Of a stretch of 64,000 nt of DNA, positions 4,032 through 60,497 are shown one piece after another (positions within the stretch are counted from its first letter, which is position 1; every line of letters starts with the position of its first letter). The notes under the pieces are model-generated. The model had not been told where the DNA came from. It ran no database searches and saw nothing but the letters and a program-made list of their open reading frames with translations. The position numbers were made by a program, and so were the translations under genes. Source of the stretch: Patescibacteria group bacterium (lineage in GTDB: Bacteria; Patescibacteriota; WWE3; UBA101185; UBA10185); NCBI GenBank assembly GCA_016926555.1, contig JAFGOI010000004.1:64776-128775 (forward strand). Reading direction: 5' to 3'.

Positions 4032-4032
4032 G

Positions 4033-4314: not shown

Positions 4315-4344
4315 ATACAAGCACACAAAGTGTAGCATACTTAC

Positions 4345-4530
4345 TATATTAGAAAAAGGCGTTAAGGGAGGCTTTTCCACCTTCCAGACCCTGAGTATTC
4401 GGGACGCGCCTCTGGGAGGAAATGCTCAGACGGGAATGCCCGTAATAGCTGTGAAAGAAGTAAAAAGTACTAGGTGGCACCGTCGCTTGAGAATTCGGGC
4501 AGACCCTGGCAAGTGAGCCGGGGTTTTTTG
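4345..4530 (+). promoter_or_regulatory. Candidate T-box leader (tRNA-sensing riboswitch) with intrinsic terminator, upstream of serS
   Basis: T-box-like motif 'UAGGUGGCACCGUCG' at 4471-4486 (consensus AGGGUGGNACCGCG). A terminator hairpin CCCUGGC-aaguga-GCCGGGG plus U6 at 4504-4529 has a 5' strand that overlaps the potential antiterminator 3' strand (GAC-CCU). Confidence 0.45.
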
Positions 4531-4547
4531 TTTAATAAAGGGTATAT

Positions 4548-45762: not shown

Positions 45763-47237
45763 AAAGTTTGGTGAAATGGCAGCTGATTAGTTTTGTATCT
45801 AGAAGTATTGCCACCGTTTTAGGTATTATTCAAGGGGCCATAGTTTTCAGAATACTCACTCAGACTGAGTTTGGCCTGAAAGAATTGGCATTATCTATTG
45901 GTGGCGCTTTGGGAATATATCAGCACTTAGGACTTGCCTCGGCTACCACACGGGAAATAGCCGCTGCCGAAGACGATTCGGAGATATTTAAGATATTTGT
46001 TACGTCAGTTTTTGCGAGATATTGTGTAACCATACCCCTGGCTATAGGACTCTATATGTCTTCAGGGTACGTGTCTAGAAAATATCCGGGTTTGGAATTA
46101 CCACTGAAATTGTATGCGTTTTCTTTGTTATTCCAAGGAATGCAGAGTATTCTTAATGCGGTAATATCTGGTACAAAGAGATTTAAGCACCTATTTATAT
46201 ACCAAGTAGTTATCGCTTTTGTAAGTGTCATTTTGTATGTACCCTTAGTTTATTTTTTTAGAGTTGCAGGTTTCTTTCATGCTTTTCTTGCATTTAACAT
46301 TGTCAGCACGGTTTCCTTAGCCTTCCTTGCTTTCAGACCGTTAAAGGGAAAGATGAAATTTCCTTCTTGGAAAGACTTCAAGCGTCTCCTTAAGGAGATA
46401 TTTTCTATTAGTATAGCAATATACGTTGTTAAAGTTCTTTATACCAACTGGGAGAAATTAGGTAATAACCTACTGGGTCTTTTCGTGTCAGCAGAAGCGG
46501 TTGCGTTATTTGGTTTTGCCATGATTTTTGCCAAGAAGCTTATGCTAATATCTGATTCGGTAACGGATGTAAATTTGCCTGTTTTATCGGAGAAATATAA
46601 GAAAGACATTTCTGATTTTAAAAGAACTTTCATTTCAAACTTTAATAAAGTCTTTTCTGTTGTGATAATCGCAGCTTCTCTTGGAACGTACTGGGCTCCC
46701 CAGGTTGTAATTATTTACGGGGGTTTAGACAAGTATTATGAATATCAGGAATCCCTTAAATTAGTTCCCCCTTTAATTATGTCGTTTGTAATATATTCAT
46801 TCATAAATATCGTGATGTCTAGTATTTTGGTTCCTGCGAAGCTAGTGAGAAGTATGATAGTGGGATTTACGGGTATGTTGCTTGGAACAGGAGGAGCATT
46901 TTTGCTAGGTCGTGTGTATTTTAATATACTTCACTCGATGGCTTGGGCTATGGTTATAGGAGCTGCAGGGGCATTATTATATTTGAAGCGTGTCGTAAAA
47001 AGAAAACTTGACTTTAACTTTCTAACAGACAGCCACATTTTATTGTTTATACAAACGTTTGCGATATGTATTTTGGGATCTGTTGAGTACGTATGGATAA
47101 AAGTAGGTGCTTTTCTACCCTTAAGTTTCCTTCTATGCTGGGGAATCTTAACTGCCGGATTTATTTCCAAGGAAGAGTATAAATTATTGATTAATAAGGC
47201 GAGGGGTTTTATTAAATGCAGAAATATAAGAGCCTAA
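45759..47237 (+). CDS. MOP-superfamily (Wzx/MurJ-like) polysaccharide flippase
   Basis: About 14 TM helices; N-terminal 'SRSIATVLGIIQGAIVFRILTQTEFGLKELALSIGGALGIYQHLGLASATTREIA'. Confidence 0.65.
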   Translation: MKSLVKWQLISFVSRSIATVLGIIQGAIVFRILTQTEFGLKELALSIGGALGIYQHLGLASATTREIAAAEDDSEIFKIFVTSVFARYCVTIPLAIGLYMSSGYVSRKYPGLELPLKLYAFSLLFQGMQSILNAVISGTKRFKHLFIYQVVIAFVSVILYVPLVYFFRVAGFFHAFLAFNIVSTVSLAFLAFRPLKGKMKFPSWKDFKRLLKEIFSISIAIYVVKVLYTNWEKLGNNLLGLFVSAEAVALFGFAMIFAKKLMLISDSVTDVNLPVLSEKYKKDISDFKRTFISNFNKVFSVVIIAASLGTYWAPQVVIIYGGLDKYYEYQESLKLVPPLIMSFVIYSFINIVMSSILVPAKLVRSMIVGFTGMLLGTGGAFLLGRVYFNILHSMAWAMVIGAAGALLYLKRVVKRKLDFNFLTDSHILLFIQTFAICILGSVEYVWIKVGAFLPLSFLLCWGILTAGFISKEEYKLLINKARGFIKCRNIRA

Positions 47238-48160
47238 TCATTAAGATTTTAGTTAGCATTTTATTATTTGGATTTCTTTTTTCTAAGATAGATGTTAATA
47301 GCGTTGTTCAAAATTTTAGCTTAATAGATTTCACTTATGTGCCGGTGATTATTCTTTTGCTTGTACTTAATTATGTTTTAAGCTCAGTTCGGTGGAAGGC
47401 TCTTCTTATTTTTGATAACACAGATGATGTGAGTGTCAGCTATTTGACGACGTTGTACTTTGTTGGGTCTTTCTTTAATAATTTTATGCCGACGAGTATA
47501 GGAGGAGATGTCTATAAGTTCGTTAAGTTGGGTAAGAAGATCGGCAGTATCGCCCATGGATTTTCTGCGACATTTATGGAAAGATTCACAGGTGTTATAA
47601 TTTTATTTCTAATTACCTTGCTGAGTTTTCCTTTAGTTTTGTCTGATTTTGTGGACTTACCGGTTGTAGGGTCAGTATTAGGCGGGTCAAAAGTTAAGTC
47701 TGTCCTGTTGTCTATATTTATCTTTATATTGTTTATCTTGGGGTTGAGAATAGGTTTATGGGTGTTGGAAAAAGCGTCAGAAAGATTCCCGAAATTAAAG
47801 AAAATATATTCATCAGTAAGTGAATACGAAAACAGACAGGATATAATCAAGACTGCTTTACTTACGTCCGTATTAGTACAGCTTATGTCTATATTTACGC
47901 AGTATTTTATATTTTCTGCACTGGGTGTTAGAATTCCGATATTTTACACGTTCACGGTTTTTCCCGTTATAGCCCTGATAAGTTTCCTTCCGATTTCTCT
48001 TAACAGTATTGGTGTGCAGGATGCTTTATACGTAAATTTATTCGGTGTGGTTGGGATATCTCCTGAGATATCTTTAAGTGCATCTATACTCTACCATTTA
48101 TTTAGATTAGGGGTTAGTTTAATTGGAGGGCTGCTATATGCGTTGGGTAAAGATTCTTAG
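47216..48160 (+). CDS. UPF0104 / lysyl-PG-synthase-TM-like 'flippase-like' membrane protein
   Basis: 'LSSVRWKALL...YFVGSFFNNFMPTSIGGDVYKFVKLGKK' resembles the LPG_synthase_TM family, which is often paired with GT2 polyprenyl-P glycosyltransferases. Confidence 0.5.
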   Translation: MQKYKSLIIKILVSILLFGFLFSKIDVNSVVQNFSLIDFTYVPVIILLLVLNYVLSSVRWKALLIFDNTDDVSVSYLTTLYFVGSFFNNFMPTSIGGDVYKFVKLGKKIGSIAHGFSATFMERFTGVIILFLITLLSFPLVLSDFVDLPVVGSVLGGSKVKSVLLSIFIFILFILGLRIGLWVLEKASERFPKLKKIYSSVSEYENRQDIIKTALLTSVLVQLMSIFTQYFIFSALGVRIPIFYTFTVFPVIALISFLPISLNSIGVQDALYVNLFGVVGISPEISLSASILYHLFRLGVSLIGGLLYALGKDS

Positions 48161-49703
48161 CATCAGTGACAAAAGGATAGTATATCTTGTCATTTTTTCG
48201 GTTGTGTTTGCGGTAACTCGGTTAGCGGGTATAAAAACGGATGTGATAAACCCGGATGCGGTTAACTGGCATTTTAGATCCCAGCAGTTCATTGTAGGGT
48301 TGAAACAATTGGAGTTTGAGAAGACGTACCAGCACTATCACCCGGGAGTAACTTTGATGTGGATCACAGGAGTGCCTATTGAATTACTGAAGCAAATAAC
48401 CGGTATTCAACATTACAATAATACCAATTTTATTTACTTCCATTTCATTGCGAAGTTCAGTCTTATTTTGTTTCAGCTAGTTTTATCTTTGGTTTTAATA
48501 TACTTTTTAAGTAGGGCAACCGATTTTCAGAGGGCATTTTTGGTTATGTCTTTATTAAGCCTGGAACCGTTCTTTTTAGGAAACTCGCGTTTGTATCATA
48601 TGGATATTTTATTTACATTAGTGTCGTTTTTAGGAATTATACTTTTATATTTGTCTGTACATAGAAATTCGTTTTTGTACAGTGTCGCTACTGGATTTGT
48701 ATTTTCCTTGAGTTTCTTAACAAGAAGTATTGGGGTGGGACTAGTACTTTATACGCTAGGCTACTTTTTTATTATGTATGTGTCCAAATCGGCTGACTTT
48801 TCACTTAAGAAATTATTAGTAATATTATCTGCTTTTGTTGTATCTTCTTTCATATTGTTTCCAGCGTTGTGGGTAAGACCAGTGCATTACATATCTGAGA
48901 TATTTAGTGAGGGTCAGAGAATAGGTGTGAGAAAAGGTCACAGCCAGCTTTTCTTTGGGAAGCAAACTGATGATGCCGGTGTTTTGTTTTATCCGCTAGT
49001 GCTTGTGATGAAAATGTCGCCGGTAATGCTGTTTGGTATTATTTGCTGCTTGATATCCTCGTGCAGAAAATTCAATATTTACAACCTGTCTTTTAAATTC
49101 ATTGGGAAAAACTCGTTTTTGTTCGTGATAACTTCATTCTATTTCGGATATTTTGCTATTATGTCCGTGTTATCTAAGAAAATAGATAGGTATATGCTCT
49201 TTATGTTTCCGTTACTTGGCTATTGTGCAGTAGTGGGTTTAGAGAGATTCTACTCTTATATTCATAAGAGGTTTGGAATTTCTCTTAAAGTGTATTACGT
49301 ATTTTTCATGACTTTTTTTGCGGCTACCTTGTTTAGTTTTTATCCGTATTACTTTACATATACGAGTCCGGTATTTCTAAATGCTAAGACGGCCAATAGT
49401 GTAATTGGTCAGAAGCCTTTTGGCGTGGGTATTTTTGAACTTAAGGATTTCGTTAACGAAAATTATAAAGACGGTGTAAATCTGGGTTTTATAGATACAA
49501 AACCGATGAAGGCGGTCTATGCAAATTCCGGGGTATTTGATATAAGGGTCAACGATCCCGGGGATTATGACCTGATAATTTTAGGTATTAATGAGGAATT
49601 TCCCGATAAGGTTCTAAAGAGTTCGCAGAGGTTTGAGCTTAGTTCAGTGATAACAATAAATGGGTTAGAATATTGGAGGATATATGACAAAAAAACTAAC
49701 TGA
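48123..49703 (+). CDS. GT-C-like polytopic membrane glycosyltransferase (paralog A)
   Basis: First-loop motif 'WHFRSQQF...YQHYHPGVTLMW' and 'LEPFFLGNSRLYH'; paralogous to 51207-52838; the true start may be the 'MRWVKIL' Met at 48138. Confidence 0.5.
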   Translation: MEGCYMRWVKILSISDKRIVYLVIFSVVFAVTRLAGIKTDVINPDAVNWHFRSQQFIVGLKQLEFEKTYQHYHPGVTLMWITGVPIELLKQITGIQHYNNTNFIYFHFIAKFSLILFQLVLSLVLIYFLSRATDFQRAFLVMSLLSLEPFFLGNSRLYHMDILFTLVSFLGIILLYLSVHRNSFLYSVATGFVFSLSFLTRSIGVGLVLYTLGYFFIMYVSKSADFSLKKLLVILSAFVVSSFILFPALWVRPVHYISEIFSEGQRIGVRKGHSQLFFGKQTDDAGVLFYPLVLVMKMSPVMLFGIICCLISSCRKFNIYNLSFKFIGKNSFLFVITSFYFGYFAIMSVLSKKIDRYMLFMFPLLGYCAVVGLERFYSYIHKRFGISLKVYYVFFMTFFAATLFSFYPYYFTYTSPVFLNAKTANSVIGQKPFGVGIFELKDFVNENYKDGVNLGFIDTKPMKAVYANSGVFDIRVNDPGDYDLIILGINEEFPDKVLKSSQRFELSSVITINGLEYWRIYDKKTN

Positions 49704-51210
49704 GCCTCTATTTATGATTTTTATTCTCGCGCTGGCTCTTCGGTGGATTGGCAGCACACATGGATTCCCTTTTATCTTTCATCCCGATGAACCCACTATT
49801 GTGAGGGAAGCTCTGAACCTGAGATTTACTAGAAATCCGGGCCACTTTGACTGGCCGCATTTGTATATGTATCTGAACTACTTTTTGTTTATGTTCTTTG
49901 CAAAGCTGCGGGATCTGGCAGCTGTACAGGGTTTGAAGCCTTATCTAAGTGCGAATATTCCGATACTGTGGAACGATAACTTGGTATTTTATCTGCTTGC
50001 TAGACTTCTTTCGGGATTTTTTGGCGCGTTAACCGTAATCCCGGTTTATTACACCGGTAAAGTTTTATTTGATAAGAAAACAGCTATAATCTCAGCTTTT
50101 ATTTTCTCTGTTCTACCTTTTCACGTGTGGCATTCACACTATTCAATGGGAGATGTTCCAATGGTGTTTTTTATTGCTTTGAATATGTATTTTTCGGCTA
50201 AAATATTCAAAGAAAACGAGGCAAAAAATTATTTGCTGGCAGGGCTTTCCATTGGATTAGCGTCTTCTGTTAAATATAATGCTGTTTTATTGTGCTTAAC
50301 TGTGCCGCTTGCGCATATTTTTAGGATTCTCAATGATCGAAAAGAAAAGTTTTTTAATTTTGATACACTTATGAATCTAGTATTTTCCGGATTATGTGCC
50401 ATCGCAGGTTTTGTTGCTGGGACGCCTTACGCTGTGATGGATTACAAGACCTTTCTTATAAGTGATAGCCCAAAGGGTGCTCTTTGGCAGTTTGTGAATG
50501 TTGGTTCAGTGGATTCATCACAGCGTTTTACGAAATTTTTTACTGAAATGGTTCATAGGGTTTCAGATGATGTGGGTTATGTGGTTCTTGCCGCGTTTTT
50601 CATTGTTTTAGCAGTATTATTGTATAAATTGGCTGTGAGGAAGTTTTCGAAGAAAGATTATACTTTATGGTACTTAGTTATTCCCCCGTTTATTTCGCTT
50701 GTGTATGTTTCAGGATTCGACAGTACCAGATCGCACTACTATATGATAGCCTACCCGTTTCTGGCCGTTGTGTACGCTTATATTGTTTGTTATTTTTCTT
50801 CCTTAGTGAAGAAAAGTTATATGATTGAGTTTTTTTCGGTTGTTCTTTTGATTTTTCCGTTGTTTTATTTTTCCGTGATAAAAACGTATATATTTGCAAG
50901 GGAGGATACAAGAAATGTTTTATTTTCTTGGGCTAATCAACATGTGGATTTGAATACCCCGATAATTTCAGGAAATGATGAATATATTTATATGGTTTTG
51001 TCTTCGAAATATAAAAATATTTATAAAGGGTATTCTAGTTATAGTATTTCTCCCTTTGGATTGGGATATTTAGTTGTGGCTGTGAGTGATGAAAGCCCAA
51101 AACAGGCTTTTGAGAGGTTTACATATCTACCCAAGCTTAATCTTGTTTATTCTATAAATAATACGTATAGGCGGGGACCGTTTATTAATATTTATGAGTA
51201 TAGAAAATGA
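49684..51210 (+). CDS. GT-C (GT39/ArnT-like) lipid-carrier-dependent glycosyltransferase
   Basis: 'FHPDEPTIVREALNLRFTRNPGHFDWPHLYMYLNY' and 'YYTGKVLFDKKTAIISAFIFSVLPFHVWHSHY'; ~12 TM. Confidence 0.6.
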   Translation: MTKKLTEPLFMIFILALALRWIGSTHGFPFIFHPDEPTIVREALNLRFTRNPGHFDWPHLYMYLNYFLFMFFAKLRDLAAVQGLKPYLSANIPILWNDNLVFYLLARLLSGFFGALTVIPVYYTGKVLFDKKTAIISAFIFSVLPFHVWHSHYSMGDVPMVFFIALNMYFSAKIFKENEAKNYLLAGLSIGLASSVKYNAVLLCLTVPLAHIFRILNDRKEKFFNFDTLMNLVFSGLCAIAGFVAGTPYAVMDYKTFLISDSPKGALWQFVNVGSVDSSQRFTKFFTEMVHRVSDDVGYVVLAAFFIVLAVLLYKLAVRKFSKKDYTLWYLVIPPFISLVYVSGFDSTRSHYYMIAYPFLAVVYAYIVCYFSSLVKKSYMIEFFSVVLLIFPLFYFSVIKTYIFAREDTRNVLFSWANQHVDLNTPIISGNDEYIYMVLSSKYKNIYKGYSSYSISPFGLGYLVVAVSDESPKQAFERFTYLPKLNLVYSINNTYRRGPFINIYEYRK

Positions 51211-52838
51211 AACTGATTTTACGCTATAAATATGAAATATGTGTGTTTCTGCTTTTTGTTATCAGTAGGCTGCCCTCTTTAGGAAATGACTGTTTTAATA
51301 CGGATGTGTGGAAATGGAAAACGAGGAGTTATGATTTCGGTACAGGTGTATTTACACTAGATTTTGCAAAAACCAGTCAAAAGTATCATCCGGGAGTTAC
51401 TTTAATGTGGCTGGGGACTTTTGGTGTCAAAGTATTTAACCTCTATTATGATCTAGTATATGGCTCTGAAACTATTTCATTGTCTCCTACGCAAGATTAT
51501 TTAGTGAGGATTTTTGGTCTACACTTTGTTCAAAAATTATTTGTTGTCGTTGTGATAGGAGTTACACTGGTTTTTCTATTTAAAGCTTTGGAGAAAATTA
51601 TTGATAGGAAATACGCTGCTATTACTATATTTTTAATTGCGTTTGAGCCTTTTTTCTTAGCTTTAAGCAGAGTATTTCATCTTGAAGGTCTTCTTTCTGT
51701 TTTTATGGTCACTTCTGTGGTGTGGTTCTATATTTACCTGACTGGAAAAAGCGAAAAGAAGGCATTGCTTATTTCAGGAGTATTTGGAGGTTTATCGTTT
51801 CTAACAAAGACTTCTGCGGTGTACCTTGTTCCTTACGTGTTTCTAGTGTCCTTTATTTGGCTTAGTAAAATCAAGGATAATAAAAATGGAAGATTTGTTC
51901 CTGAATATGTAAAAACGGTTTTCTCGTGGATATTGATATCCCTGTCTGTGGTTGTGATATTGTGGCCCGCGTTGTGGGTGGATTTTTCAAATGTTGTGTC
52001 TAATCTATACAGGGGAGTTTCTGAAATTGGTATTGAACAAGAACATTCACAGATATATTTTGGCAAGCGCGTAGAGAATCCGGGTTTAACCTACTATTTG
52101 GTGGTATTACTACTAAGATCTTCTCCTTATTTATTAGTTGGATGTTTCAGTATGTATTTTTTAATTAAAAATGGCCGATTTGAGGATAAGAAAGATTTCG
52201 TATTTTATCTTTTTATATTTTCACTTTTTTATTTGATGCAGCATACGATTCCATCAAAAAAATTGGATAGATATATACTACCGGCAATTGTGGGTATGGT
52301 TCCCATTGCGTCGTTCTTCTTTTATGATCTTGTACAAAATAAAAGCATATCTAAAAATATTAAAGTGGCTGTTTTGCTATTTCCTTTGATTACAGCGGTC
52401 TATATACATCCGGACTACTTTTCCTACTATAATCCGTTTTTCGGAGGTATAAGAACGGGGATTAAAGTAATTGAACCTAAATGGATGATCGGACAAAGTG
52501 AAATTACAAAGTATTTTGAAGAATTAATTAAAGAGCGAGGAATTACAGGAGATAATGAGTGCCCATCTTTCGAATGTGTTATTGACAGTAACAAAACCAA
52601 AGATGTTCTTTCAGTAGGATTTCCTGAGAAATATTACACACAGGTACATCCATTTATTAGGAAAATTGGCGGTTGGGCAGTTATAAAGGATTTGACGCCC
52701 TTTGCAAAGCATACCAATTTTTTCGTTTATCCCGTGTGGGAAGACGATTCTTCTTTGGAGGACAGATTTAAGCTAAACTATATTGGTACCATTAAGGTAA
52801 AAGGAGTGGATGTATACAATGTTTACGAAAGTAATTAA
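51207..52838 (+). CDS. GT-C-like polytopic membrane glycosyltransferase (paralog B)
   Basis: 'WKWKTRSYDF...SQKYHPGVTLMW' and 'FEPFFLALSRVFH'; C-terminal soluble ~170 aa. Confidence 0.5.
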   Translation: MKLILRYKYEICVFLLFVISRLPSLGNDCFNTDVWKWKTRSYDFGTGVFTLDFAKTSQKYHPGVTLMWLGTFGVKVFNLYYDLVYGSETISLSPTQDYLVRIFGLHFVQKLFVVVVIGVTLVFLFKALEKIIDRKYAAITIFLIAFEPFFLALSRVFHLEGLLSVFMVTSVVWFYIYLTGKSEKKALLISGVFGGLSFLTKTSAVYLVPYVFLVSFIWLSKIKDNKNGRFVPEYVKTVFSWILISLSVVVILWPALWVDFSNVVSNLYRGVSEIGIEQEHSQIYFGKRVENPGLTYYLVVLLLRSSPYLLVGCFSMYFLIKNGRFEDKKDFVFYLFIFSLFYLMQHTIPSKKLDRYILPAIVGMVPIASFFFYDLVQNKSISKNIKVAVLLFPLITAVYIHPDYFSYYNPFFGGIRTGIKVIEPKWMIGQSEITKYFEELIKERGITGDNECPSFECVIDSNKTKDVLSVGFPEKYYTQVHPFIRKIGGWAVIKDLTPFAKHTNFFVYPVWEDDSSLEDRFKLNYIGTIKVKGVDVYNVYESN

Positions 52839-54075
52839 GAATCCCGAATTACAGGGAACAATAATCATTACAACCGGAAGTATAATTGGAAGCTTTTTTG
52901 CTTATCTTCTTCAATTTTTCTTGGGTCGAATGCTGTCTGTCGAAAATTATGGATCTTTTAGTGCTTTAATTTCTGTTTCTACAATAGTTGGCGTGTTTGC
53001 GGGTGTGTTTGTTATTGCATTAGTTAAAATAGTGTCTGAGCTGGTTGCGAAGGAAGATTTTGAGAGAGTGACAGCGTTATTTTGGAAGGTAACCCTCTGG
53101 GGACTTTTGTACGGGCTCGTGGCGTTTTTCTTGGTTTATATACTAAAGAATTATATCTCGAGTACACTAAAGATTTCTGATGTTACAGCTATAGTATTTT
53201 TCGGGTGGTTTCTGGGAATGAATTTATTTCCTCCTATATCGCGATCTTACCTTCAAGCCCTTTTAAGATATAAAGCATTGGCTTTCTTTCTAGTTTATAG
53301 CGGGTTTTTAAGGTTTGTTTTTCCGGTTGTTTTTGTTTATTTTGGCTATGCATTGTCCGGTGTTTTTTTTGGAATGGGGATAGGGTTGGCACTTTCGTTT
53401 GTTTTCTCGCTGCTTTTATTGCGTAAAAACTTTAGAAAACACGAGATAATTGATCTGTCCGAGCAGTATGAGAAATTTCTTATGCTGGGACTGCCTATTA
53501 CGATTCTATTTCTTGGTTTGATGATTCTTAGCAATATGGATATGATTCTCGTGAAAAGATTTTTTGATCCAGACCTAGCGGGATATTATGCCGGAACAGT
53601 AACACTTGGAAAAATACTTCTCTTTGGGGCGGGTTCGGTCAACTTGATTATGTTTCCGCAAATTTCAGCGGTATATACAAAAGGAGAAAATTATATCGAA
53701 AAATTCAAAAAGTTGCTATTCATGCAAATAGGTGTGGTAATTGCCGGGGTTGTCCCCTATATAGCATTTCCGAAATTTCTCACGACGGCATTCTTCGGGA
53801 AGAGTTTTCTGGGTTCAGTCGAATATTTACCTCTGTTCTCTATTTTTGTTGGATTATATGTATTAGTAAATTTTATGGTGTTGTTTTTTCTCGCGATAGA
53901 TAAAAAAAACGTTTTTTGGTTTCTTGTACCAGGTGTAACACTCCAAACTCTATTGATTTATTTTCTGCATGCGGATTTGTATCAGGTTATATATATAAAC
54001 ATAGGGGTTTCCTTAGCTACTTGTTTGGCACTATTTATTTACTATAGAAAAACTGTATCTCAAGCTCTATTTTAG
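52810..54075 (+). CDS. MOP-superfamily (Wzx-like) flippase, second copy
   Basis: 12-14 TM helices; 'IIITTGSIIGSFFAYLLQFFLGRMLSVENYGSFSALISV'. Confidence 0.6.
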   Translation: MYTMFTKVIKNPELQGTIIITTGSIIGSFFAYLLQFFLGRMLSVENYGSFSALISVSTIVGVFAGVFVIALVKIVSELVAKEDFERVTALFWKVTLWGLLYGLVAFFLVYILKNYISSTLKISDVTAIVFFGWFLGMNLFPPISRSYLQALLRYKALAFFLVYSGFLRFVFPVVFVYFGYALSGVFFGMGIGLALSFVFSLLLLRKNFRKHEIIDLSEQYEKFLMLGLPITILFLGLMILSNMDMILVKRFFDPDLAGYYAGTVTLGKILLFGAGSVNLIMFPQISAVYTKGENYIEKFKKLLFMQIGVVIAGVVPYIAFPKFLTTAFFGKSFLGSVEYLPLFSIFVGLYVLVNFMVLFFLAIDKKNVFWFLVPGVTLQTLLIYFLHADLYQVIYINIGVSLATCLALFIYYRKTVSQALF

Positions 54076-54092: not shown

Positions 54093-54905
54093 ATGTTAGT
54101 TTCAATAATTATTCCGGTATACAAAAAGGAAGAAACTGTAGTTAAAGATATTTTGAATATTTGGAAAACAGTTAAACAGACCAGATGGGATTGTGAGTTG
54201 ATAGTTGTTATTGATGGTTTTGTAGATAAAAGTTTTGAGAGGGCGAAGACGATAAAAAAGAAGAATATTAAAGTTTTCGGATATCCGACAAATAAAGGAA
54301 AAGGATATGCTGTAAAGTATGGTATGGCGCGTGCTAGAGGGGATTTGGTTGCTTTTATAGATTCTGGTATGGAGATAAATCCAAATAGTATTTCAATGGT
54401 TCTTGAACATATGGAATGGTATGATGCCGATGTAATAGTTGGCAGTAAGAGGCACCCTGCCTCTAAGACCAATTTAACGGCATTGAGGAAATTATATAGC
54501 TGGGGTTATTATCAACTTGTTAAGTATTTGTTTGGTTTGAGAGTAAAAGATACACAGGCTGGTTTAAAAGTTTTTAGAAGAAAAGTGTTAGAAAAGGTTC
54601 TTCCTCGGCTTTTAGTGAAGGAGTACGCATTTGATGTGGAACTTCTTGCCGTGACAAATCATCTCGGCTTTACGAGAATTTATGAGGCTCCTATTGAGAT
54701 AACATTGGATTTTGACAATTCTAGGTTTTCGAAAAATTGGTTTCCATTTATGGATAAACATATTCGGAAAATGATGGTGGATACACTTGCCGTCTTTTAT
54801 AGGCTTTATCTTCTTCGATACTATGACGATACAAGCAAGAGAAAATGGACATATGATAATGAGCTAAAAATGAGGATTAATACTGGAGAAGTAACTTATG
54901 ATTAA
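54093..54905 (+). CDS. GT2 glycosyltransferase
   Basis: 'LVSIIIPVYKKEETV...ELIVVIDGFVDKS...VAFIDSGMEINP'. Confidence 0.7.
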   Translation: MLVSIIIPVYKKEETVVKDILNIWKTVKQTRWDCELIVVIDGFVDKSFERAKTIKKKNIKVFGYPTNKGKGYAVKYGMARARGDLVAFIDSGMEINPNSISMVLEHMEWYDADVIVGSKRHPASKTNLTALRKLYSWGYYQLVKYLFGLRVKDTQAGLKVFRRKVLEKVLPRLLVKEYAFDVELLAVTNHLGFTRIYEAPIEITLDFDNSRFSKNWFPFMDKHIRKMMVDTLAVFYRLYLLRYYDDTSKRKWTYDNELKMRINTGEVTYD

Positions 54906-55911
54906 GTTTAGTATCATCATTCCTTGTAGATCAATTACGGATTTTTTGAAAGAGAGTATTCCTTACCTCAAAAAATTAAATTATAAACAGTACGAGATTC
55001 TCATTGTACTTGATAATGATGATGCATATGATTTCAGGGATAACAGGTTTAAGGTGCTGGTTTCGGGACCGGTTGGTCCCGCGGAGAAAAGAAATCTCGC
55101 GGTTTCTAAAGCTACAGGTGATATTTTAGCTTTTTTGGATGATGATGCGTTTCCGACTGAAAATTGGTTGGACAAAGCCGCAGAGTATTTTAATGACCCT
55201 TCTGTATACGCGTTAGGAGGTCCTGCGATGACTCCGGGTAACGCCGGTTTCCTTGAATTAGTTTCTGGTTTAATCTTGGAGTCATGTATATCCAGCGGCA
55301 ATACTGTTTATAGGCATCTTCCAAAAAAAGCAAGAAAGATCTCGGATTATCCAACCGTGAATTTGTTTGTCAGAAGGAAGATATTTATCGATGTAAAAGG
55401 ATTTAACACAGATTTTTGGCCCGGAGAGGACACAAAACTATGTTTGGATTTAGTTAAGAAAATGGGTGGGCCTTTTGTTTATGCACCGAATGTGTTGGTT
55501 TATCATCACAGGAGAGATGTGTTTATACCGCATTTGAAGCAGGTATCCCGTTACGGGAAACATCGCGGACAGTTTGCAAAAATATACCCCGAAACATCAA
55601 GGTTGCCATTTTATTTTGTACCTTCCATGTTTGTAGTGTTTTTAGTTTTGGGCGGGATATTGTCAGTGCTATTCAAACAGTATTTTTGGGGATACTTGGG
55701 GGTCATTTCACTGTATGTATGTATTACACTATTAGAAAGTATAAAAGCTTATACCAAGAGTAAGAAAATTTTAGTTGTGCCGTATTTCGTACTTGGAGTT
55801 TTTCTGACGCATCTTGTTTATGGTATAAACTTTATTATTGGTTATTTAGTAAGACCGGAATTAAAATTAAAGAGATATAATGAGAAAACCGGAAATTATA
55901 TGGAAGGATGA
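54898..55911 (+). CDS. GT2 glycosyltransferase with C-terminal TM anchor
   Basis: 'FSIIIPCRSITDFL...ILIVLDNDDAYD...LAFLDDDAFPTENWL' (DxD) plus 2-3 C-terminal TM. Confidence 0.7.
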   Translation: MIKFSIIIPCRSITDFLKESIPYLKKLNYKQYEILIVLDNDDAYDFRDNRFKVLVSGPVGPAEKRNLAVSKATGDILAFLDDDAFPTENWLDKAAEYFNDPSVYALGGPAMTPGNAGFLELVSGLILESCISSGNTVYRHLPKKARKISDYPTVNLFVRRKIFIDVKGFNTDFWPGEDTKLCLDLVKKMGGPFVYAPNVLVYHHRRDVFIPHLKQVSRYGKHRGQFAKIYPETSRLPFYFVPSMFVVFLVLGGILSVLFKQYFWGYLGVISLYVCITLLESIKAYTKSKKILVVPYFVLGVFLTHLVYGINFIIGYLVRPELKLKRYNEKTGNYMEG

Positions 55912-56165
55912 ATATGTCCGAGGAACAAAAAGTCTATAAAAATGCCTCTTCAAAAGTTGTGATTAAGGTTGTAAATGATGCATGTGTTAGCGCTGCTACA
56001 TGTGTAGTTTTTGCGCCCAACACGTTTGACTTGGATGAAAACGGTATCGTATATGCCAAAGAAGGTACATGGGACGAAGCTGAGGAGATAATTAAAGCCG
56101 CCAAGTCGTGCCCTACCACTGCAATAATTGTGGAAGATTTGGATGGAAACAGATTGTATCCTTAA
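55908..56165 (+). CDS. Small single-cluster ferredoxin ([3Fe-4S]/[4Fe-4S] type)
   Basis: 85 aa; 'CVSAATC' (C-x2-A-x2-C) ...'SCP', the mono-cluster Fd pattern; directly upstream of the radical SAM gene. Confidence 0.6.
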   Translation: MNMSEEQKVYKNASSKVVIKVVNDACVSAATCVVFAPNTFDLDENGIVYAKEGTWDEAEEIIKAAKSCPTTAIIVEDLDGNRLYP

Positions 56166-56204
56166 GCTATGTAATTCAAGTGCGATTATAGTATCATTAG
56201 TTTT

Positions 56205-57809
56205 ATGTCCCAAAAGAAGTATAAAATCGTAATAGGATATCCACCGATTGCTCAAGAAAAAGGCACACCTCTTCTGTCTCAGAACAGACAGTTTCAGTAT
56301 TTTAATGCTCCCTGTTATATATATCCCATGGTTCCCGCGTATGCCGCAAGTTTAGCGCAGGAGAGAGGTTATGATGTTGTTTGGATGGATGGGATTGCCG
56401 AGAAGATGTCTTATAGCGAATGGGCAAGCAAGTTTATAAACGAAAAGCCCGATATTCTAATGATAGAGACAAAGGCTCCTGTAGTAAGACAGCACTGGAA
56501 AATAGTTGATGAACTGAAAAATGAACTCCCTGAGTTGGTTATTGTTCTGGTTGGCGATCATGTAACATGTTTTCCTGAGGAGTCGCTTAATTCCTGTAGT
56601 GCCGACTTCATAATTCTGGGGGGAGACTACGATTTTGTACTGTCTGATTTGGCGGATTCTCTTTCAAGCGGTACAACCTTGCCAGGAGGCATATGGGGTA
56701 GAAGTAGTAATAAAAAATTAGAACTTCCGAAAGAAACAGAAAACAAGGGCAAATATTTCGTTACGGGGTCGTCTCAATTAAAACACAAGCTGGACGATCT
56801 TCCTTTTATAGATAGGGATCTTACCAAGTGGAAACTATATGCATATGAGAATGGAAACTACAAGTATAAACCGGCAACTTATATGTACTCCGGGAGAGAC
56901 TGCTGGTGGAATAGGTGCACGTTTTGTATATGGGATCATTCCCTGTATCCACGAGGAAGTTACAGAAGATTTTCGCCTGAAAGACTGTTTGCAGAGGTAA
57001 AACATGTTGTTGATAATTATGGTGTAAGAGAAATTTTTGATGATGCGGGAACTCTATTCGTTGGCCCTCCCCTAAAGAAATTTTGCCAGTTATTAATAGA
57101 CTCAGGTTATAACAAAAAGGTTGTTTATAGCTGTAATATGAGATTAAATGCGCTAAACCAGGAATACTACGATTTGATGGGTAAGGCCAACTTTAGATTT
57201 ATTTTATATGGTATGGAGTCAGCAAATCAGGAAACACTTGATCGGATAGATAAGGGGATGAAAGTTGAAGATATCGAAAAGGGAGTGATAATGGCCAAGA
57301 AAGCTGGCCTAGAACCACATTTAACTGTCATGCTTGGGTATCCGTGGGAAACTGAGGAGATGGTAAAAAATACTATAAATTTGGCGAGAGATTTGTTTAA
57401 AAGAGGTTATGTCGATACGATGCAAGCCACTATAACAATTCCATATCCAGGGACGCCTCTATATAACGAGTGTGTAAAAAATGGCTGGTTGCGCGTGGAC
57501 CCAAAAGATTATGAAGCATTTGATATGCGGGGGCCTGTGATGAAAACACCTTTTCCCGTAGAGAGAATTTATGACTTTACACAGGAATTGTATTCTAGTT
57601 TCTTTACTCCGCAGTATATTATCCGAAAAGTTTTAGCCGTGAGGTCGCCCGATGATGTTAAGTTTCTGTTTATGGCGGCAAGAAGATTGATAGGACATTT
57701 ACTGGATTTTGATAAAGAGCAGGAGGGATCCAGCTGGTTAAATCCTAGTTTCTGGTTTCGGGCTGTAAAAAGCATGTTTAAGCATGTGTTTTCGAAAGAA
57801 AGCAAATAG
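56205..57809 (+). CDS. B12-binding-domain radical SAM enzyme (class B-like)
   Basis: N-terminal Rossmann-like cobalamin-binding region 'KIVIGYPPIAQEKGTPLLSQNRQFQYFNAPCYIYPMVPAYAASLAQERGYDVVWMD...' followed by a Cys triad 'RDCWWNRCTFCIW' (C-x4-C-x2-C) and TIM-barrel-like 'ILYGMESANQETLDRIDKG'. Confidence 0.65.
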   Translation: MSQKKYKIVIGYPPIAQEKGTPLLSQNRQFQYFNAPCYIYPMVPAYAASLAQERGYDVVWMDGIAEKMSYSEWASKFINEKPDILMIETKAPVVRQHWKIVDELKNELPELVIVLVGDHVTCFPEESLNSCSADFIILGGDYDFVLSDLADSLSSGTTLPGGIWGRSSNKKLELPKETENKGKYFVTGSSQLKHKLDDLPFIDRDLTKWKLYAYENGNYKYKPATYMYSGRDCWWNRCTFCIWDHSLYPRGSYRRFSPERLFAEVKHVVDNYGVREIFDDAGTLFVGPPLKKFCQLLIDSGYNKKVVYSCNMRLNALNQEYYDLMGKANFRFILYGMESANQETLDRIDKGMKVEDIEKGVIMAKKAGLEPHLTVMLGYPWETEEMVKNTINLARDLFKRGYVDTMQATITIPYPGTPLYNECVKNGWLRVDPKDYEAFDMRGPVMKTPFPVERIYDFTQELYSSFFTPQYIIRKVLAVRSPDDVKFLFMAARRLIGHLLDFDKEQEGSSWLNPSFWFRAVKSMFKHVFSKESK

Positions 57810-57820: not shown

Positions 57821-58561
57821 ATGAAAATTCTTGATATTTTGCTAGACACATTTACTGCTCTAAAAGAAAAAGGATTAAAACATGTAGTTAAGGTTATTAC
57901 TGACGTTGCTGGAGGAAATTTGCATAACTGTTTTTGGTATACGTATGGCAAAGTCTTTAATAAAACGGTTGTCCATGTCATAGGTGATAGTCACGTTAGA
58001 GTTTTTAAGGGCCAAAAACGCTTCATTATTCATCATTTGGGACCTGCTACAGCGTATAATCTTTCAAGTAAACATAGTACAACGGACTCAAATGAGAAGT
58101 TTTGGAATGTTGTTGATACACTTGTTGAAAAGAAAAAAGACAAAATACTCCTTGTTTTTGGCGAGATAGATAGCCGGATACATATTTATAAAGCCTATAA
58201 AAAGAAGGGAAGTTCGATTGACGACGTTATTTACGCTACTATATCCAGATATGACGAAGTTCTTAGTCAGCTAAACGAAAGAGGATATACTTTCTACGTT
58301 CATGGAATTCCACCTGGCTCAAAGCAAGAAAACATATATAACGTTTCCCACTATCCCACACCTGAGATGCGAGCGAAGATTAACAAAAGATTTCATGAGG
58401 TATTAGAAGAGCATTGTAAGAAGAGAGGATACAAGTATATCGATGTATATATGCCGTATGTTAACGAAGAAGGTTTTATTAAGAGAGAATATGAGTTAGA
58501 TGAAGTTCATCTGAACAATAGAATAATTCCTGAGGTGAAGAGAGCCATAAATTTTTACTAG
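57821..58561 (+). CDS. SGNH/GDSL-family hydrolase or acyl-/O-acetyltransferase-like protein
   Basis: Block I 'VVHVIGDSHVRVF' (GDSx) and block V 'YELDEVHLNNR' (DxxH). Confidence 0.5.
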   Translation: MKILDILLDTFTALKEKGLKHVVKVITDVAGGNLHNCFWYTYGKVFNKTVVHVIGDSHVRVFKGQKRFIIHHLGPATAYNLSSKHSTTDSNEKFWNVVDTLVEKKKDKILLVFGEIDSRIHIYKAYKKKGSSIDDVIYATISRYDEVLSQLNERGYTFYVHGIPPGSKQENIYNVSHYPTPEMRAKINKRFHEVLEEHCKKRGYKYIDVYMPYVNEEGFIKREYELDEVHLNNRIIPEVKRAINFY

Positions 58562-58569: not shown

Positions 58570-59613
58570 ATGAAAGTAAACTGGCAAAAAATCTCAATAG
58601 TAATGCCGACACTAAATGCCGAGAAGGTATTAGGTAGCGCGCTAGAGTCCATAAAAGTGCAAGATTACCCCAAGGACAAAATAGAGATTATTGTTGCAGA
58701 TGGAAGTTCCTCGGATGGAACTTTAGACTTGGCGAAAAAATATGGGGCGAGAGTAGTTGGGAACAAGTTAAGAACGGGGGAGGCCGGTAAGGCGGCTGCG
58801 TTAAGAGAAGTAAATGGAGAATTTGTTATATTTATAGATTCGGACAATATTCTGCCTACAAAGAATTGGATAAAGCAGATGATTAAACCGTTGATAGACA
58901 ATCCAAATGCTGTTGGCAGTGAACCCTGGAAATATACGTGGAGGAAAGAAGATGGCTTTATTACGAGATATTGCGCGTTAATCGGCATGAACGATCCCCT
59001 GGTACATTTCCTTGGTAACTATGATCGAGTGAATCTCCTGACGGGGAAGTGGACGGAAGTGCCCCATGAAGAGGAAGATATGGGAGATTACCTTCTTGTT
59101 AAATTGGATGAAAGGGGAATTCCCACTATTGGTGCGAATGGAACTGTATTCAGGAAAGCATTTTTGGATAAAAATTGGTCTGGCGATTATTTTTTCGATA
59201 TAGATATCATCCACAAAAAGATACGTTTGGACGGCAGCGTATTGTTTATTAAGGTAAAAAACGGAATTATCCACACTTTTTGCGAGAATAATGTGTCCAA
59301 GTTCATAAGGAAGCAAAAAAGGAGAATAAAAGATTATCTCTACCATCAGTATGTGGCTAAAGACAGAGAATATGATTGGAGCAGCATGGATATATCGGGC
59401 AAAAATAACAAAGGTATACTCCTTTTTATATTCTCGTGTTTGACAGTAATTCCATTGATAATACAGTCTTTAAAGGGATATTTTAGAAAACCGGATATGG
59501 CGTGGTTCTTTCATCCTATAGCTTGCGAAATTACTTTATGGGAATATGGTTGGGCTAAAATTACGGGTATATTTAAAAAAGCGGAAATTAGTAGAAGTAA
59601 CTGGAGGCAGTGA
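58570..59613 (+). CDS. GT2 glycosyltransferase with C-terminal TM segment
   Basis: 'ISIVMPTLNAEKVL...IEIIVADGSSSDGT...VIFIDSDNILP'. Confidence 0.7.
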   Translation: MKVNWQKISIVMPTLNAEKVLGSALESIKVQDYPKDKIEIIVADGSSSDGTLDLAKKYGARVVGNKLRTGEAGKAAALREVNGEFVIFIDSDNILPTKNWIKQMIKPLIDNPNAVGSEPWKYTWRKEDGFITRYCALIGMNDPLVHFLGNYDRVNLLTGKWTEVPHEEEDMGDYLLVKLDERGIPTIGANGTVFRKAFLDKNWSGDYFFDIDIIHKKIRLDGSVLFIKVKNGIIHTFCENNVSKFIRKQKRRIKDYLYHQYVAKDREYDWSSMDISGKNNKGILLFIFSCLTVIPLIIQSLKGYFRKPDMAWFFHPIACEITLWEYGWAKITGIFKKAEISRSNWRQ

Positions 59614-60497
59614 TTGTGAAAAGTAAGAAAGATAAAATAGATTTTATAGGTATAGGTTCAGCGAAATCCGGTTCATCGTGGTTGGCGACTTGTTTAATAG
59701 AACATCCCCAAGTTAACCTCCCAAAGGAGAAATCACTTTTCTTTTTTAACGCAGATTATGGAAATGAATATATCAAGGATAACTGGTCGTATTGGTCAAA
59801 AGGTATAGATTGGTACCTAAGTAAATTCCCCCCCGTGGAAAAAGGAAAAATAAGAGGTGAATTTGGGGTAAGTTATTTGCACGATCCTGAAGCGCCACAA
59901 AGGATTAAGGATAATTTCCCCGATACAAAAATCTTAGTCACTTTGAGGAACCCCTGTGACATGCTCTATTCACTATATTGGTATAACGTCAACACTGTTG
60001 AGGCGAAAGTTCCGGAGACGTTTGAAGAGGCAGTTAAGACCGGATGGTGTATCGACAGAGGGAATTATTATAAGTATTTAAGAAGGTTTTTTGATTTGTT
60101 TCCGCGGAAGAATATTCATGTTGTGATATTTGATGATATTAGAAATGAGCCTGAAAGAGTTGCGTTCGAGCTGTACAAATTTCTGGAAGTTGATACAAGT
60201 TTTAAACCATCTATATTAGATAAGAAAATTTATTCGGCCATAGGACATCGGTTTTGGATGTTTAAACAGCTCGGATATTATATGTTTGCTGTGTTAAGAA
60301 TTCTAAAGCTTGAGAAAGTGAGAAGGTTTCTTATTGATAACCCAATATTTTACGCAGTCTATGCGAAGTTAAATGTTGTTCCTAAAAAGTATCCCCCAAT
60401 GGAAGATGGCAGTAGAAATAAACTGAGGAAAGTATATAGGAAAGATATAAAAAAGCTAGAAAAGCTGGTAAAACATGATTTAAGTGCCTGGTTATAG
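59610..60497 (+). CDS. Sulfotransferase-family protein (PAPS-dependent)
   Basis: 5'-PSB-like 'IDFIGIGSAKSGSSWL' and 3'-PB-like 'ILVTLRNPCDMLYSLYWY'; GTG start. Confidence 0.65.
   Translation: MIVKSKKDKIDFIGIGSAKSGSSWLATCLIEHPQVNLPKEKSLFFFNADYGNEYIKDNWSYWSKGIDWYLSKFPPVEKGKIRGEFGVSYLHDPEAPQRIKDNFPDTKILVTLRNPCDMLYSLYWYNVNTVEAKVPETFEEAVKTGWCIDRGNYYKYLRRFFDLFPRKNIHVVIFDDIRNEPERVAFELYKFLEVDTSFKPSILDKKIYSAIGHRFWMFKQLGYYMFAVLRILKLEKVRRFLIDNPIFYAVYAKLNVVPKKYPPMEDGSRNKLRKVYRKDIKKLEKLVKHDLSAWL

Follow-up and report, generated by a model that had tools for sequence, protein, structure and literature searches.

What does a radical SAM protein with a cobalamin-binding-like domain do among the glycosyltransferase genes of a Patescibacteria (CPR) chromosome? 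This question is raised by one gene, rSAM, of the window, i.e., the whole 64,000-nt stretch of DNA that was analysed (Table 1). Its product is best explained as a predicted active [4Fe-4S]/SAM radical enzyme that forms one functional unit with GT2b, the membrane glycosyltransferase encoded upstream. That rSAM performs a radical tailoring of the lipid-linked sugar made by the GT2a-GT2b pair appears quite probable. When the reaction is further specified as a rearrangement of the HpnJ type, HpnJ being the enzyme of the hopanoid sugar ring contraction, we put the probability of the whole statement at about 0.4.

Table 1. Genes and protein features of the glycan locus (positions in the window)
Feature	Position	Strand	Description
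LPG_synthase_TM membrane protein	47216..48160	+	MprF-flippase/HpnL-like; Pfam, 6.7e-44
Three GT-C membrane glycosyltransferases	48123..52838	+	PMT/PMT_2/STT3-like, users of polyprenyl-phosphate-sugar donors; Pfam
Flippase	52810..54075	+	MOP/Wzx-type (Polysacc_synt), immediately precedes the GT2 pair; Pfam
GT2a	54093..54905	+	Soluble family-2 glycosyltransferase, resembles polyprenyl-phosphate sugar synthases (PgfS, PpgS, ArnC, AglJ-like); Pfam, NCBIfam
GT2b	54898..55911	+	Membrane-integrated, synthase-type family-2 glycosyltransferase, GT-A domain and three C-terminal TM helices; Pfam Glycos_transf_2, Glyco_trans_2_3
Ferredoxin	55908..56165	+	85 aa, single-cluster, predicted [3Fe-4S]-type, C26xxA29xxC32...C68P69; Pfam Fer4_13, Fer4_15, Fer4_19
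rSAM	56205..57809	+	534 aa, class-B (cobalamin-domain-like) architecture; CPR clade mark RDCW[WY]xxCxFCxW
N-terminal domain of rSAM	56223..56702	+	aa 7-166, Rossmann-type, cobalamin-binding-like
Cluster-binding motif of rSAM	56901..56927	+	C233-x4-C238-x2-C241
SGNH-like ORF	57821..58561	+	Lipase_GDSL_2, E 2e-4, below cut-off
GT2c	58570..59613	+	Third family-2 glycosyltransferase, frequent downstream member; Pfam
Sulfotransferase	59610..60497	+	Pfam, 7e-18

Domains and cluster motif of rSAM

rSAM belongs to the radical SAM superfamily by its profile score, its three-cysteine motif of variant spacing and its core fold. The radical SAM domain, already proposed in the first-pass annotation, is recovered by Pfam Radical_SAM (PF04055) over aa 231-394 (E 1.2e-18, 68.3 bits, above the cut-off of 29.5), and the AF2 model (pLDDT 71), in which the cluster loop is of low confidence, aligns to many radical SAM structures over a partial TIM-barrel core. 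The cysteine triad, which reads RDCWWNRCTFCIW, is invariant in 16/16 aligned homologues, and homologues linked to GT2b keep CW[WY]xxCxFC, with its Cx4Cx2C spacing, at identities as low as 45%. The non-canonical spacing to which the same annotation had drawn attention is thus a conserved character, and OxsB, which contracts a sugar ring and also belongs to class B, offers a precedent with its CX4CX2C motif (PMC9204698). Two homologues encoded beside GT2b and apparently devoid of the motif were considered as degenerate copies, which was rejected: one (L142) is a Cx16Cx2C variant and the other (L153) carries an intein.

The cobalamin-binding-like character that had also been ascribed to the N-terminal domain stands as far as architecture is concerned, every full-length NCBIfam match of rSAM being a class-B (B12-domain) radical SAM family, but Pfam B12-binding (E 2.2e-6, 28.0 bits) remains slightly under its cut-off of 32.1. 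None of the curated NCBIfam family cut-offs is reached. T89 (for the Ser/Thr after beta3), G117 (for the Gly on beta4) and W243, positions assigned from alignment and secondary structure rather than from a cofactor-bound model, are present and invariant, and W243, located two residues past C241, matches W215 of TokK, where a Trp also occupies the +2 position after the Cys motif. In the alpha5 motif, G139-G140-D141, GD takes the place of the class-B GE. The beta1-alpha1 loop is unusually long and invariant (PLLSQNRQFQYFN...IYPMVP). Judged from these motifs, binding of cobalamin by rSAM is plausible.

rSAM is the founder of a large, uncharacterised CPR clade, which comprises 491 species genomes at ~70% identity across WWE3 and Microgenomates; a literature search on this CPR family found no publication. 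Outgroup relatives, at 38-40% identity, are also located in glycan clusters; outgroup loci encode 3-4 paralogous B12-type radical SAM proteins each.

A conserved unit with two glycosyltransferases

The neighbourhood of rSAM was counted in 53 species loci that extend 9 kb or more upstream and, for the other side, in 47 related loci with enough downstream flank. GT2b is found in 53/53 and GT2a in 51/53 of the former, with intergenic gaps of a few tens of nt within the module; in one locus (L001), both are even fused into a 633-aa protein. In the reverse test, rSAM accompanies GT2b in 31/33 GT2b-seeded metagenome loci, which include divergent, directly abutting pairs (43-48% identity for GT2b, 45-53% for rSAM). 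The conserved unit consists of GT2a, GT2b, an optional ferredoxin and rSAM, in that order, and GT2b is an obligate partner of rSAM. The link between rSAM and glycan assembly, which the first-pass annotation had read from a single locus, therefore holds up: it is conserved in both directions and is older than the CPR clade. As rSAM is nearly always encoded directly after GT2b, it most likely remodels a lipid-linked envelope sugar. The GT2b model (AF2, pLDDT 87) has hyaluronan synthase, PcManGT and BcsA as its best folds. GT2b was also considered as an HpnI orthologue, which was rejected (BLASTP E 0.006; HpnI hit absent in NCBIfam).

This reciprocal pairing bears on another reading, also raised in the first-pass annotation, according to which rSAM would act on the lipid itself, with the polyprenyl carrier, or the tail of a membrane lipid, being cyclised, cross-linked or methylated as by GrsA/B, Tes/Mss, HpnP/R or the ladderane enzyme. 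Many class-B and related radical SAM enzymes do modify lipids (PMC13459092), and rSAM weakly matches a lipid-biosynthesis B12/radical SAM family (TIGR04072, 60 bits in NCBIfam). The tight pairing is however with a glycosyltransferase and not with lipid-synthesis genes, and isoprenoid or fatty-acid synthesis genes do not recur in the loci, so that we regard a lipid substrate as very unlikely.

The ferredoxin gene overlaps that of GT2b by 4 nt (ATGA), as initially described, and is separated from rSAM by a 39-nt spacer (56166-56204). Its product passes the Fer4_13 cut-off of 24.5 (E 1.2e-10, 42.4 bits); C26, A29, C32, C68 and P69 are conserved in 45-46/46 ferredoxin sequences, the Ala at the fourth-ligand position being found in 45/46 orthologues, which suggests a [3Fe-4S] cluster. 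The ferredoxin is presumed to be the reductant of the rSAM cluster, but the initial view of it as an electron donor of rSAM's own is only partly retained. It is present in 41/53 species loci of this clade (~77%), at most 400 nt upstream of rSAM in 30 of those, yet it is attached more tightly to GT2b than to rSAM, and deeper clades, in which divergent GT2b-rSAM pairs abut directly, lack it.

The wider locus

GT2a, the MOP flippase, the MprF/HpnL-like protein, the GT-C transferases and BacA together indicate a polyprenyl-phosphate glycan assembly setting. By ORF clustering, the flippase is present in 62/84 loci, always on the same strand and at a median offset of -3.9 kb; GT-C transferases are found in 31-33 of the 53 species loci. 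The LPG_synthase_TM protein scores 78.9 bits against TIGR00374, over the cut-off, and 41.8 bits against HpnL, under the cut-off. On the downstream side, GT2c is encoded in 24/47 of the species loci whose flank was long enough; ORF clustering recovers it in 40 loci. BacA is encoded elsewhere within the window.

The genes that follow rSAM had been proposed as meaningful context. The GT2 and sulfotransferase assignments are confirmed, the SGNH one being weak; in the 47 related loci, however, the SGNH-like ORF and the sulfotransferase recur in 0/47 and 2/47, respectively. They were consequently rejected as functional partners, the true partners being the two GT2 genes upstream, GT2b first of all, and are strain-specific accessory genes outside the conserved module. 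For the ferredoxin, rSAM and their neighbours, assignment by chance match is excluded.

Between 52 and 62 kb, predicted promoters and terminators were no more numerous than in shuffled sequence, a result which is compatible with one operon and proves nothing. A replication origin at ~4 kb, where a GC-skew and a strand switch are seen, was also considered and discarded: the first gene on the + strand is serS, and the intergenic region has no DnaA-box matches.

Which chemistry on the lipid-linked sugar?

In its general form, radical tailoring of the sugar or of its lipid carrier, the initial proposal remains the best-supported reading. As for the reaction itself, the likeliest single chemistry is an HpnJ-type rearrangement, with C-methylation as a close rival. 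GT2a and GT2b would assemble a lipid-linked sugar or short glycan at the cytoplasmic membrane face, the ferredoxin, where encoded, would supply the electron for SAM cleavage, and the 5'-deoxyadenosyl radical would take a hydrogen from the sugar. The pyranose added by GT2b could then be contracted, in a non-methylating reaction of the HpnJ/Cds type, to a carbocyclic cyclitol ether-linked to the aglycone. Contraction on the non-reducing sugar would leave the glycan transferable, and the modified lipid-linked glycan would be flipped and passed to envelope acceptors.

HpnJ is the best curated match to rSAM, with a nearly end-to-end alignment, the same architecture and a score of 168.7 bits vs 90.2 for BchE; identity between rSAM and a genuine HpnJ is 28% over 354 aa. 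CTFCxW is present in both, and the beta1-alpha1 loop motif is common to rSAM and HpnJ-like proteins but not to a BchE-like one. The gene context is similar as well: in the genuine hpn locus, the order is hpnJ, hpnI (GT2), LPG_synthase_TM, hpnK, hpnJ thus adjoining, as in the window, genes for a membrane GT2, in the hpn case the one installing the HpnJ substrate sugar, and for an LPG_synthase_TM protein. A radical SAM gene is likewise combined with GT2 and LPG_synthase_TM genes in the window and in two further loci (L089, L090), and the LPG_synthase_TM family adjoins HpnJ-like radical SAM genes in these and in a third one (L084).

Other enzymes provide parallels for the reaction. For HpnJ, Cds and PtmC, all radical SAM enzymes, contraction of a glycosidically linked hexose has been proposed (PMC13459092, PMC9092360). 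Compared by description, Cds (calditol synthase, Saci_1489) and PtmC share with our proposal the conversion of a linked hexose to a cyclopentitol, the hexose being lipid-linked in the case of Cds; the literature covered calls Cds a radical SAM enzyme without describing it as B12-binding. OxsB (PDB 5UL3), the cobalamin-dependent enzyme that converts a deoxyribose to an oxetane, is a fold match to rSAM within class B, has the same cysteine spacing and contracts its ring without methylation.

The affinity to HpnJ is nevertheless relative, not close, since more generic class-B proteins outscore the rSAM family against HpnJ. The score of rSAM amounts to 29% of the TIGR03471 equivalog cut-off (577.6), the HpnJ motif is Cx3Cx2C, and the rSAM locus has a ferredoxin partner. 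In the window cluster, neither an HpnK-type deacetylase nor other hopanoid families were found, the LPG_synthase_TM/HpnL-like gene being the only one shared. As the host is a CPR bacterium and not one of the Proteobacteria, the aglycone of rSAM must be other than a hopanoid. Furthermore, HpnJ has never been reconstituted in vitro, and the chemistry of rSAM is predicted. BchE (TIGR02026) is more distant still, its cut-off being 481 bits, and there is no bacteriochlorophyll context.

C-methylation was the chemistry favoured in the first-pass annotation. rSAM would be, like MoeK5, GenK or Fom3, a cobalamin-dependent C-methyltransferase producing a C-methyl branched sugar: a first SAM would methylate cob(I)alamin, a second would yield the 5'-deoxyadenosyl radical for hydrogen abstraction at an unactivated sugar carbon, and a methyl radical would finally pass from methyl-cobalamin to that carbon of the lipid-linked glycan. 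The class-B architecture is consistent with it, as are the cobalamin-contact positions (T89, G117, GGD 139-141, W243), which are largely kept, and the best fold matches, which include TsrM, MgmA, CysS and TokK. Characterised class-B enzymes are mostly methylases, and HpnJ itself is grouped with MoeK5 and Fom3 in published similarity networks, which also weakens the HpnJ argument. MoeK5, GenK and Fom3, which act on sugars or small phospho-compounds, share the class-B architecture by description, and the MoeK5 substrate is a sugar linked to a lipid-phosphoglycerate. Finally, the several paralogous B12-type radical SAM proteins of the outgroup glycan clusters would fit multiple methylations better than ring contractions.

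Several observations point away from a methylase. Curated methylase models give 33-58 bits with rSAM, far under the score of HpnJ (HpnR 57.7, rSAM_ocin_1 50.1, MgmA family 49, KedN5 32.8), and the sub-threshold B12-binding match and the GD at the alpha5 GE motif count in the same direction. Corrin synthesis is usually missing from CPR genomes, and C-methylation would then require a scavenged cofactor; a paper on CPR metabolism offered nothing usable about cobalamin. With the non-methylating HpnJ as closest curated family and the cobalamin-independent AprD4 as closest solved fold, C-methylation loses its favoured place and is considered here as a possible, though less likely, outcome.

By both sequence and fold, no solved structure is closer to rSAM than AprD4 (PDB 6FD2), the 1,2-diol dehydratase of apramycin biosynthesis, which combines a Rossmann-like N-domain with a radical SAM barrel and acts on a sugar. 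rSAM could accordingly be envisaged as a cobalamin-independent sugar enzyme that oxidises, epimerises or, by 1,2-diol dehydration, deoxygenates the lipid-linked sugar, with its Rossmann N-domain binding the substrate instead of cobalamin; AprD4 and ArsL have Rossmann-like N-domains without cobalamin binding (PMC12931638), and the Pfam B12-binding score agrees with such a role. However, identity in the structural alignment is 15%, the AprD4 substrate is a soluble aminoglycoside, and rSAM has 45.8 bits against the AprD4 model of NCBIfam (NF033070), whose cut-off is 500. The margins of AprD4 over TsrM, MgmA and CysS in the fold search are negligible, and when solved structures were searched with the rSAM family alignment as profile, MgmA and AprD4 alone were retrieved, which gave no further discrimination. 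The cobalamin-contact positions are conserved in rSAM, and a conserved AprD3-like reductase partner was not found in the loci. An AprD4-type reaction is thus rather unlikely. The equal ranking of a cobalamin-independent dehydratase and cobalamin-dependent methylases in fold searches also counts against the HpnJ-type rearrangement, which we still retain as the best explanation.

Implications for CPR envelopes

A module of two to four genes, shared by some 500 species genomes at ~70% identity, predicts an unusual, radical-based modification of a lipid-linked sugar. A large part of bacterial diversity belongs to the CPR, whose envelope chemistry is almost uncharted. As these bacteria are believed to attach to the cells of hosts, their surface glycans are probably important for their lifestyle. 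The module is small enough for heterologous expression and could be a tractable system for HpnJ-type chemistry, the product mass distinguishing between the reactions: an unchanged mass would indicate rearrangement, +14 Da methylation and a lower mass deoxygenation. It also bears on whether a cobalamin-type domain truly uses cobalamin in organisms of minimal metabolism.

A more speculative reading is that hundreds of CPR species, from WWE3, Microgenomates and related groups, employ the GT2b-rSAM pair to build, on a lipid-linked envelope glycan or glycolipid, a sugar mimic that is carbocyclic and ether-linked. If true, it would be a cyclitol or carbasugar unit like calditol or the BHT cyclitol ether, with an acid- and glycosidase-resistant linkage, and these organisms of minimal metabolism might make it either without cobalamin or with cobalamin that they scavenge. 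HpnJ/Cds-type chemistry would then reach beyond hopanoids and archaeal tetraethers and become a general modification of bacterial envelopes.

Gene layout and window content

The ORF layout reproduces exactly what was initially proposed, namely a small ferredoxin gene overlapping the gene upstream, then a short spacer and a gene for a 534-aa protein. The upstream gene (GT2b, a membrane synthase-type family-2 glycosyltransferase), the ferredoxin gene and that of the radical SAM (rSAM) protein are all on the + strand, inside a run of closely packed genes, and promoter-like and terminator-like sites around the cluster are not more frequent than in shuffled sequence, which is compatible with one operon.

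Coordinates of the features considered in the window
Feature	Position	Strand	Remark
BacA/UppP (undecaprenyl-diphosphate phosphatase)	6633-7412		
CAP/cysteine-rich secretory family protein	34548-35516		
LPG_synthase_TM gene	47216-48160		Pfam 6.7e-44; weak HpnL match
GT2a, soluble GT2	54093-54905	+	
GT2b, GT2 gene	54898-55911	+	ORF layout
Ferredoxin ORF, 85 aa	55908-56165	+	Start overlaps GT2 gene by 4 nt (ATGA)
Antisense ORFs, 61 and 101 aa	55934-56255	-	Overlap ferredoxin gene
Spacer, ferredoxin to rSAM	56166-56204 (39 nt)		ORF layout
rSAM ORF, 534 aa	56205-57809	+	ORF layout
Site equivalent to intein insertion in homologues	56922-56927		

The first 35 kb of the window contain rpoB/rpoC, ribosomal-protein genes, SecA and BacA/UppP, the latter consistent with recycling of a polyprenyl-phosphate carrier. 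From 35.7 kb to the window end, immediately after the CAP-family gene, extends an unbroken envelope-glycosylation cluster containing GT2, GT4 and GT-C (PMT_2, DUF2079) enzymes, two MOP flippases and an LPG_synthase_TM protein. Within window positions 1-4600, GC skew and gene orientation both switch at ~4 kb; past this point the + strand begins with serS, not dnaA, and no DnaA-box match was found in the 3911-4548 intergenic region. The switch looks like a divergent operon boundary, not an origin. The motif TTATCCACA (at most 1 mismatch) occurs 39 times in the whole window against 20.7 +/- 4.6 expected, a count reached in 0 of 100 shuffles; its matches, mainly on the - strand, are dispersed within genes, and the excess probably reflects codon usage or composition. 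The two antisense ORFs over the ferredoxin gene look spurious, without support.

The ferredoxin and the radical SAM protein

The ferredoxin matches Pfam Fer4_13 above threshold (E 1.2e-10), as well as Fer4_15 and Fer4_19, with the ligand pattern C26-x2-A29-x2-C32...C68-P69. The three Cys and the Pro are invariant in 46 orthologues and Ala occupies the fourth-ligand position in 45 of them, so that the predicted [3Fe-4S] type, a cluster assignment drawn from the motif, bears out the initial one and holds for the whole family.

A database entry identical to the 534-aa protein bears the name 'radical SAM protein', and the proposed radical SAM core is confirmed by Pfam Radical_SAM (68.3 bits, well over threshold). 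The N-terminus is a class-B-type domain; its match to Pfam B12-binding is significant (E 2.2e-6), but the score of 28.0 bits is slightly below the curated cut-off of 32.1. All substantial NCBIfam matches are to B12-domain rSAM families, aligned nearly end to end, which points to a class-B-like architecture, i.e., that of rSAM enzymes with a cobalamin-binding N-terminal domain. The hopanoid-pathway protein HpnJ is far in front (2e-49, 168.7 bits), followed by BchE (90.2) and, between 33 and 69 bits, by PhpK, ApyD, the ladderane enzyme, HpnR and others; none of the NCBIfam cut-offs is approached, that of HpnJ being 577.6.

The fold is uninformative on cobalamin binding, since AprD4 and ArsL share it without binding the cofactor (PMC12931638), and a cobalamin-free, AprD4-like dehydratase or another redox role is possible. 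With cobalamin-contact motifs taken as defined from OxsB, TsrM and TokK (PMC9204698), the family keeps T89 (after beta3), G117 (on beta4) and, two residues past the Cys motif, W243, which is at the position of TokK W215; alpha5 has GGD where the contact motif has GE. Cobalamin use is thus plausible but unproven.

The non-canonical motif C233-x4-C238-x2-C241 (RDCWWNRCTFCIW) proved to be conserved, as it is invariant across a 16-sequence alignment and its RDCW[WYH]xxCxFCxW form is retained in homologues linked to GT2b at identities as low as 45%. Across the wider superclade, the length of the first spacing varies unusually (x3, x4, x7, x9, x10, x16); in more generic class-B relatives it is uniformly x3. 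The x4 spacing has an in-class precedent, since the sugar-ring-contracting enzyme OxsB carries CX4CX2C (PMC9204698).

An intein, lacking in the window protein, lies exactly between F240 and C241 in homologues P0122, P0126 and P0151 and at locus L153, making the third cluster Cys the +1 extein nucleophile. That of P0122 (~465 aa) contains a LAGLIDADG-like homing endonuclease, that of P0126 is a mini-intein (~190 aa), and P0123-P0125 (890-940 aa) probably have the same insertion. Five relatives at 29-36% identity (P0142, P0145, P0149, P0150, P0155) have lost all three cluster Cys, the rest of the fold-length sequence being kept, and may be non-catalytic paralogues.

Distribution and conserved neighbourhood

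Among 8000 candidates scored, more than 5000 match the window protein at E < 1e-10, the best 120 (67-74% identity) being proteins of Patescibacteria (CPR) MAGs, among them WWE3 and Saccharimonadales-labelled ones. When one genome per GTDB species was scanned, 491 loci were confirmed, and HMMER, run exhaustively on representatives at 50% identity, gave 438 clusters with E-values up to 1e-30, along which identity declines gradually to ~25%. Many MAG records with this CPR-type locus (L055, L057, L058, others) carry the title 'uncultured Gammaproteobacteria', 'Pseudomonadales' or 'Saccharibacteria'; these titles are probably wrong, since the loci share their synteny with those of WWE3 and Roizmanbacteria.

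In 53 non-redundant species loci that reach 9 kb or more upstream of the rSAM gene, GT2b is present in 53, GT2a in 51, the ferredoxin in 41 (at most 400 nt from rSAM in 30) and PMT-type GT-C genes in 31-33; a MOP flippase is found in 37/53 by tblastn and in 62/84 loci by ORF clustering. Of the proposed glycan-operon partners, the GT2 genes are therefore conserved, but downstream, in the 47 loci with enough flank, no SGNH-like gene was found and a sulfotransferase only twice. In the reverse direction, 80 metagenome loci were seeded with GT2b homologues, and rSAM is present in 31/33 of those with 6 kb or more of downstream flank and in 40/43 with 2.5 kb or more. These forward and reverse co-occurrences, which substantiate the suspected link to glycosyltransferases across genomes, show that GT2b and rSAM are a reciprocal, deeply conserved pair.

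The GT2b-to-ferredoxin gap (median 30 nt; at most 300 nt in 53/56) varies less than the ferredoxin-to-rSAM gap. Where the ferredoxin is missing, GT2b abuts rSAM, and divergent pairs (GT2b 43-48%, rSAM 45-53% identity) abut directly without it. As an insert, the ferredoxin is confined to the WWE3-like clade, and the first-pass annotation's 'own electron donor', although frequent, is not general.

In one Patescibacteria genome (L001, 1317-3218), a single fusion protein of 633 aa combines GT2a and GT2b; the ferredoxin remains attached to the fusion, with rSAM 6.5 kb downstream. Fourteen related loci (e.g., L027 7629-8603, L002 6336-7298) encode, upstream of rSAM at a median offset of -1.06 kb, a 320-336-aa protein with a faint Glyco_hydro_42 match and a CxCxxC stretch, directly after the ferredoxin in L001-L003 and not encoded in the window. 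In 15 loci, a membrane protein of 153 aa is encoded immediately 3' of rSAM.

The soluble GT2a (270 aa) best resembles the polyprenyl-phosphate sugar synthases PgfS, PpgS, ArnC and AglJ. In GT2b (337 aa), a GT-A domain is accompanied by interface helices and, at the C-terminus, three TM helices; the folds that match its AF2 model (pLDDT 87) best are those of hyaluronan synthase, a Pyrobaculum membrane mannosyltransferase and BcsA, and the NCBIfam matches of GT2b are MftF, EpsD and AglG, which extends a dolichyl-phosphate-glucose. Together with the MOP flippase, GT-C enzymes and BacA, these types suggest that a sugar or short glycan linked to polyprenyl phosphate is put together on the cytoplasmic face, then flipped and transferred.

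Relation to HpnJ and proposed chemistry

HpnJ, Cds and PtmC, none of them reconstituted so far, are rSAMs for which ring contraction of a glycosidically linked hexose to a cyclopentitol has been proposed, HpnJ converting BHT-glucosamine to the cyclitol ether and Cds GDGT-hexose to calditol (PMC13459092, PMC9092360). On a Burkholderia replicon, the genes of a genuine hpn locus follow the order hpnJ, hpnI (GT2), LPG_synthase_TM protein, hpnK, and the LPG_synthase_TM and GT2 context of this locus is mirrored in the window. However, the window protein is far below the HpnJ cut-off, GT2b was rejected as HpnI on sequence comparison and HpnK is missing from the locus, so that the HpnJ affinity is a lead, not family membership.

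HpnJ-like, but not true HpnJ, rSAMs of unrelated lineages (L089, L090) adjoin LPG_synthase_TM, GT2, PMT_2 and MOP-flippase genes, and one on a Lawsonia plasmid is amid GT2, GalE, SIS, HAD and GHMP-kinase genes, with no LPG_synthase_TM gene. Outgroup relatives of the window protein (38-40% identity) are also within glycan clusters, some of which hold B12-type rSAMs in sets of three or four paralogues, and one adjoins a Bac_transf priming transferase. The broader clade is thus consistently glycan-associated. The outgroup glycan clusters L085, L086 and L089 each have three or four paralogous B12-domain rSAM genes (L085 and L089 also SPASM-type rSAMs) among GT1/GT2, PMT, YfhO-like, carbamoyltransferase, methyltransferase and NDP-sugar genes, which suggests that further uncultivated lineages have glycans with heavy radical tailoring.

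The rSAM, activated by the ferredoxin where present, would act on the sugar that the GT2 pair installs, although action on the lipid itself is possible. The likeliest single chemistry would be an HpnJ-type, non-methylating rearrangement, as HpnJ is the family that matches best, its GT2 and LPG_synthase_TM context is mirrored here and OxsB offers a precedent for the motif; contraction of a non-reducing sugar could leave the glycan transferable. C-methylation of the lipid-linked sugar, favoured by the first-pass annotation, is a close rival given the departures from the hpn system and similarity networks in which HpnJ's nearest relatives include the methylases MoeK5 and Fom3, but the top curated family, HpnJ, is non-methylating. 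The initial interpretation, radical tailoring in a glycan operon, is partly supported: it holds in outline and is amended as to partners, ferredoxin generality and preferred chemistry, now rearrangement.

We found no paper on this rSAM family in a literature search. The clade to which the window protein belongs is uncharacterised and centred on the CPR; its class-B-type rSAMs combine a variant cluster motif with a fixed GT2 partner. While not astonishing to a specialist, the GT2-rSAM module is compact and widespread, and lets a predicted, unusual modification of the CPR envelope, as well as chemistry of the HpnJ type, be tested directly.
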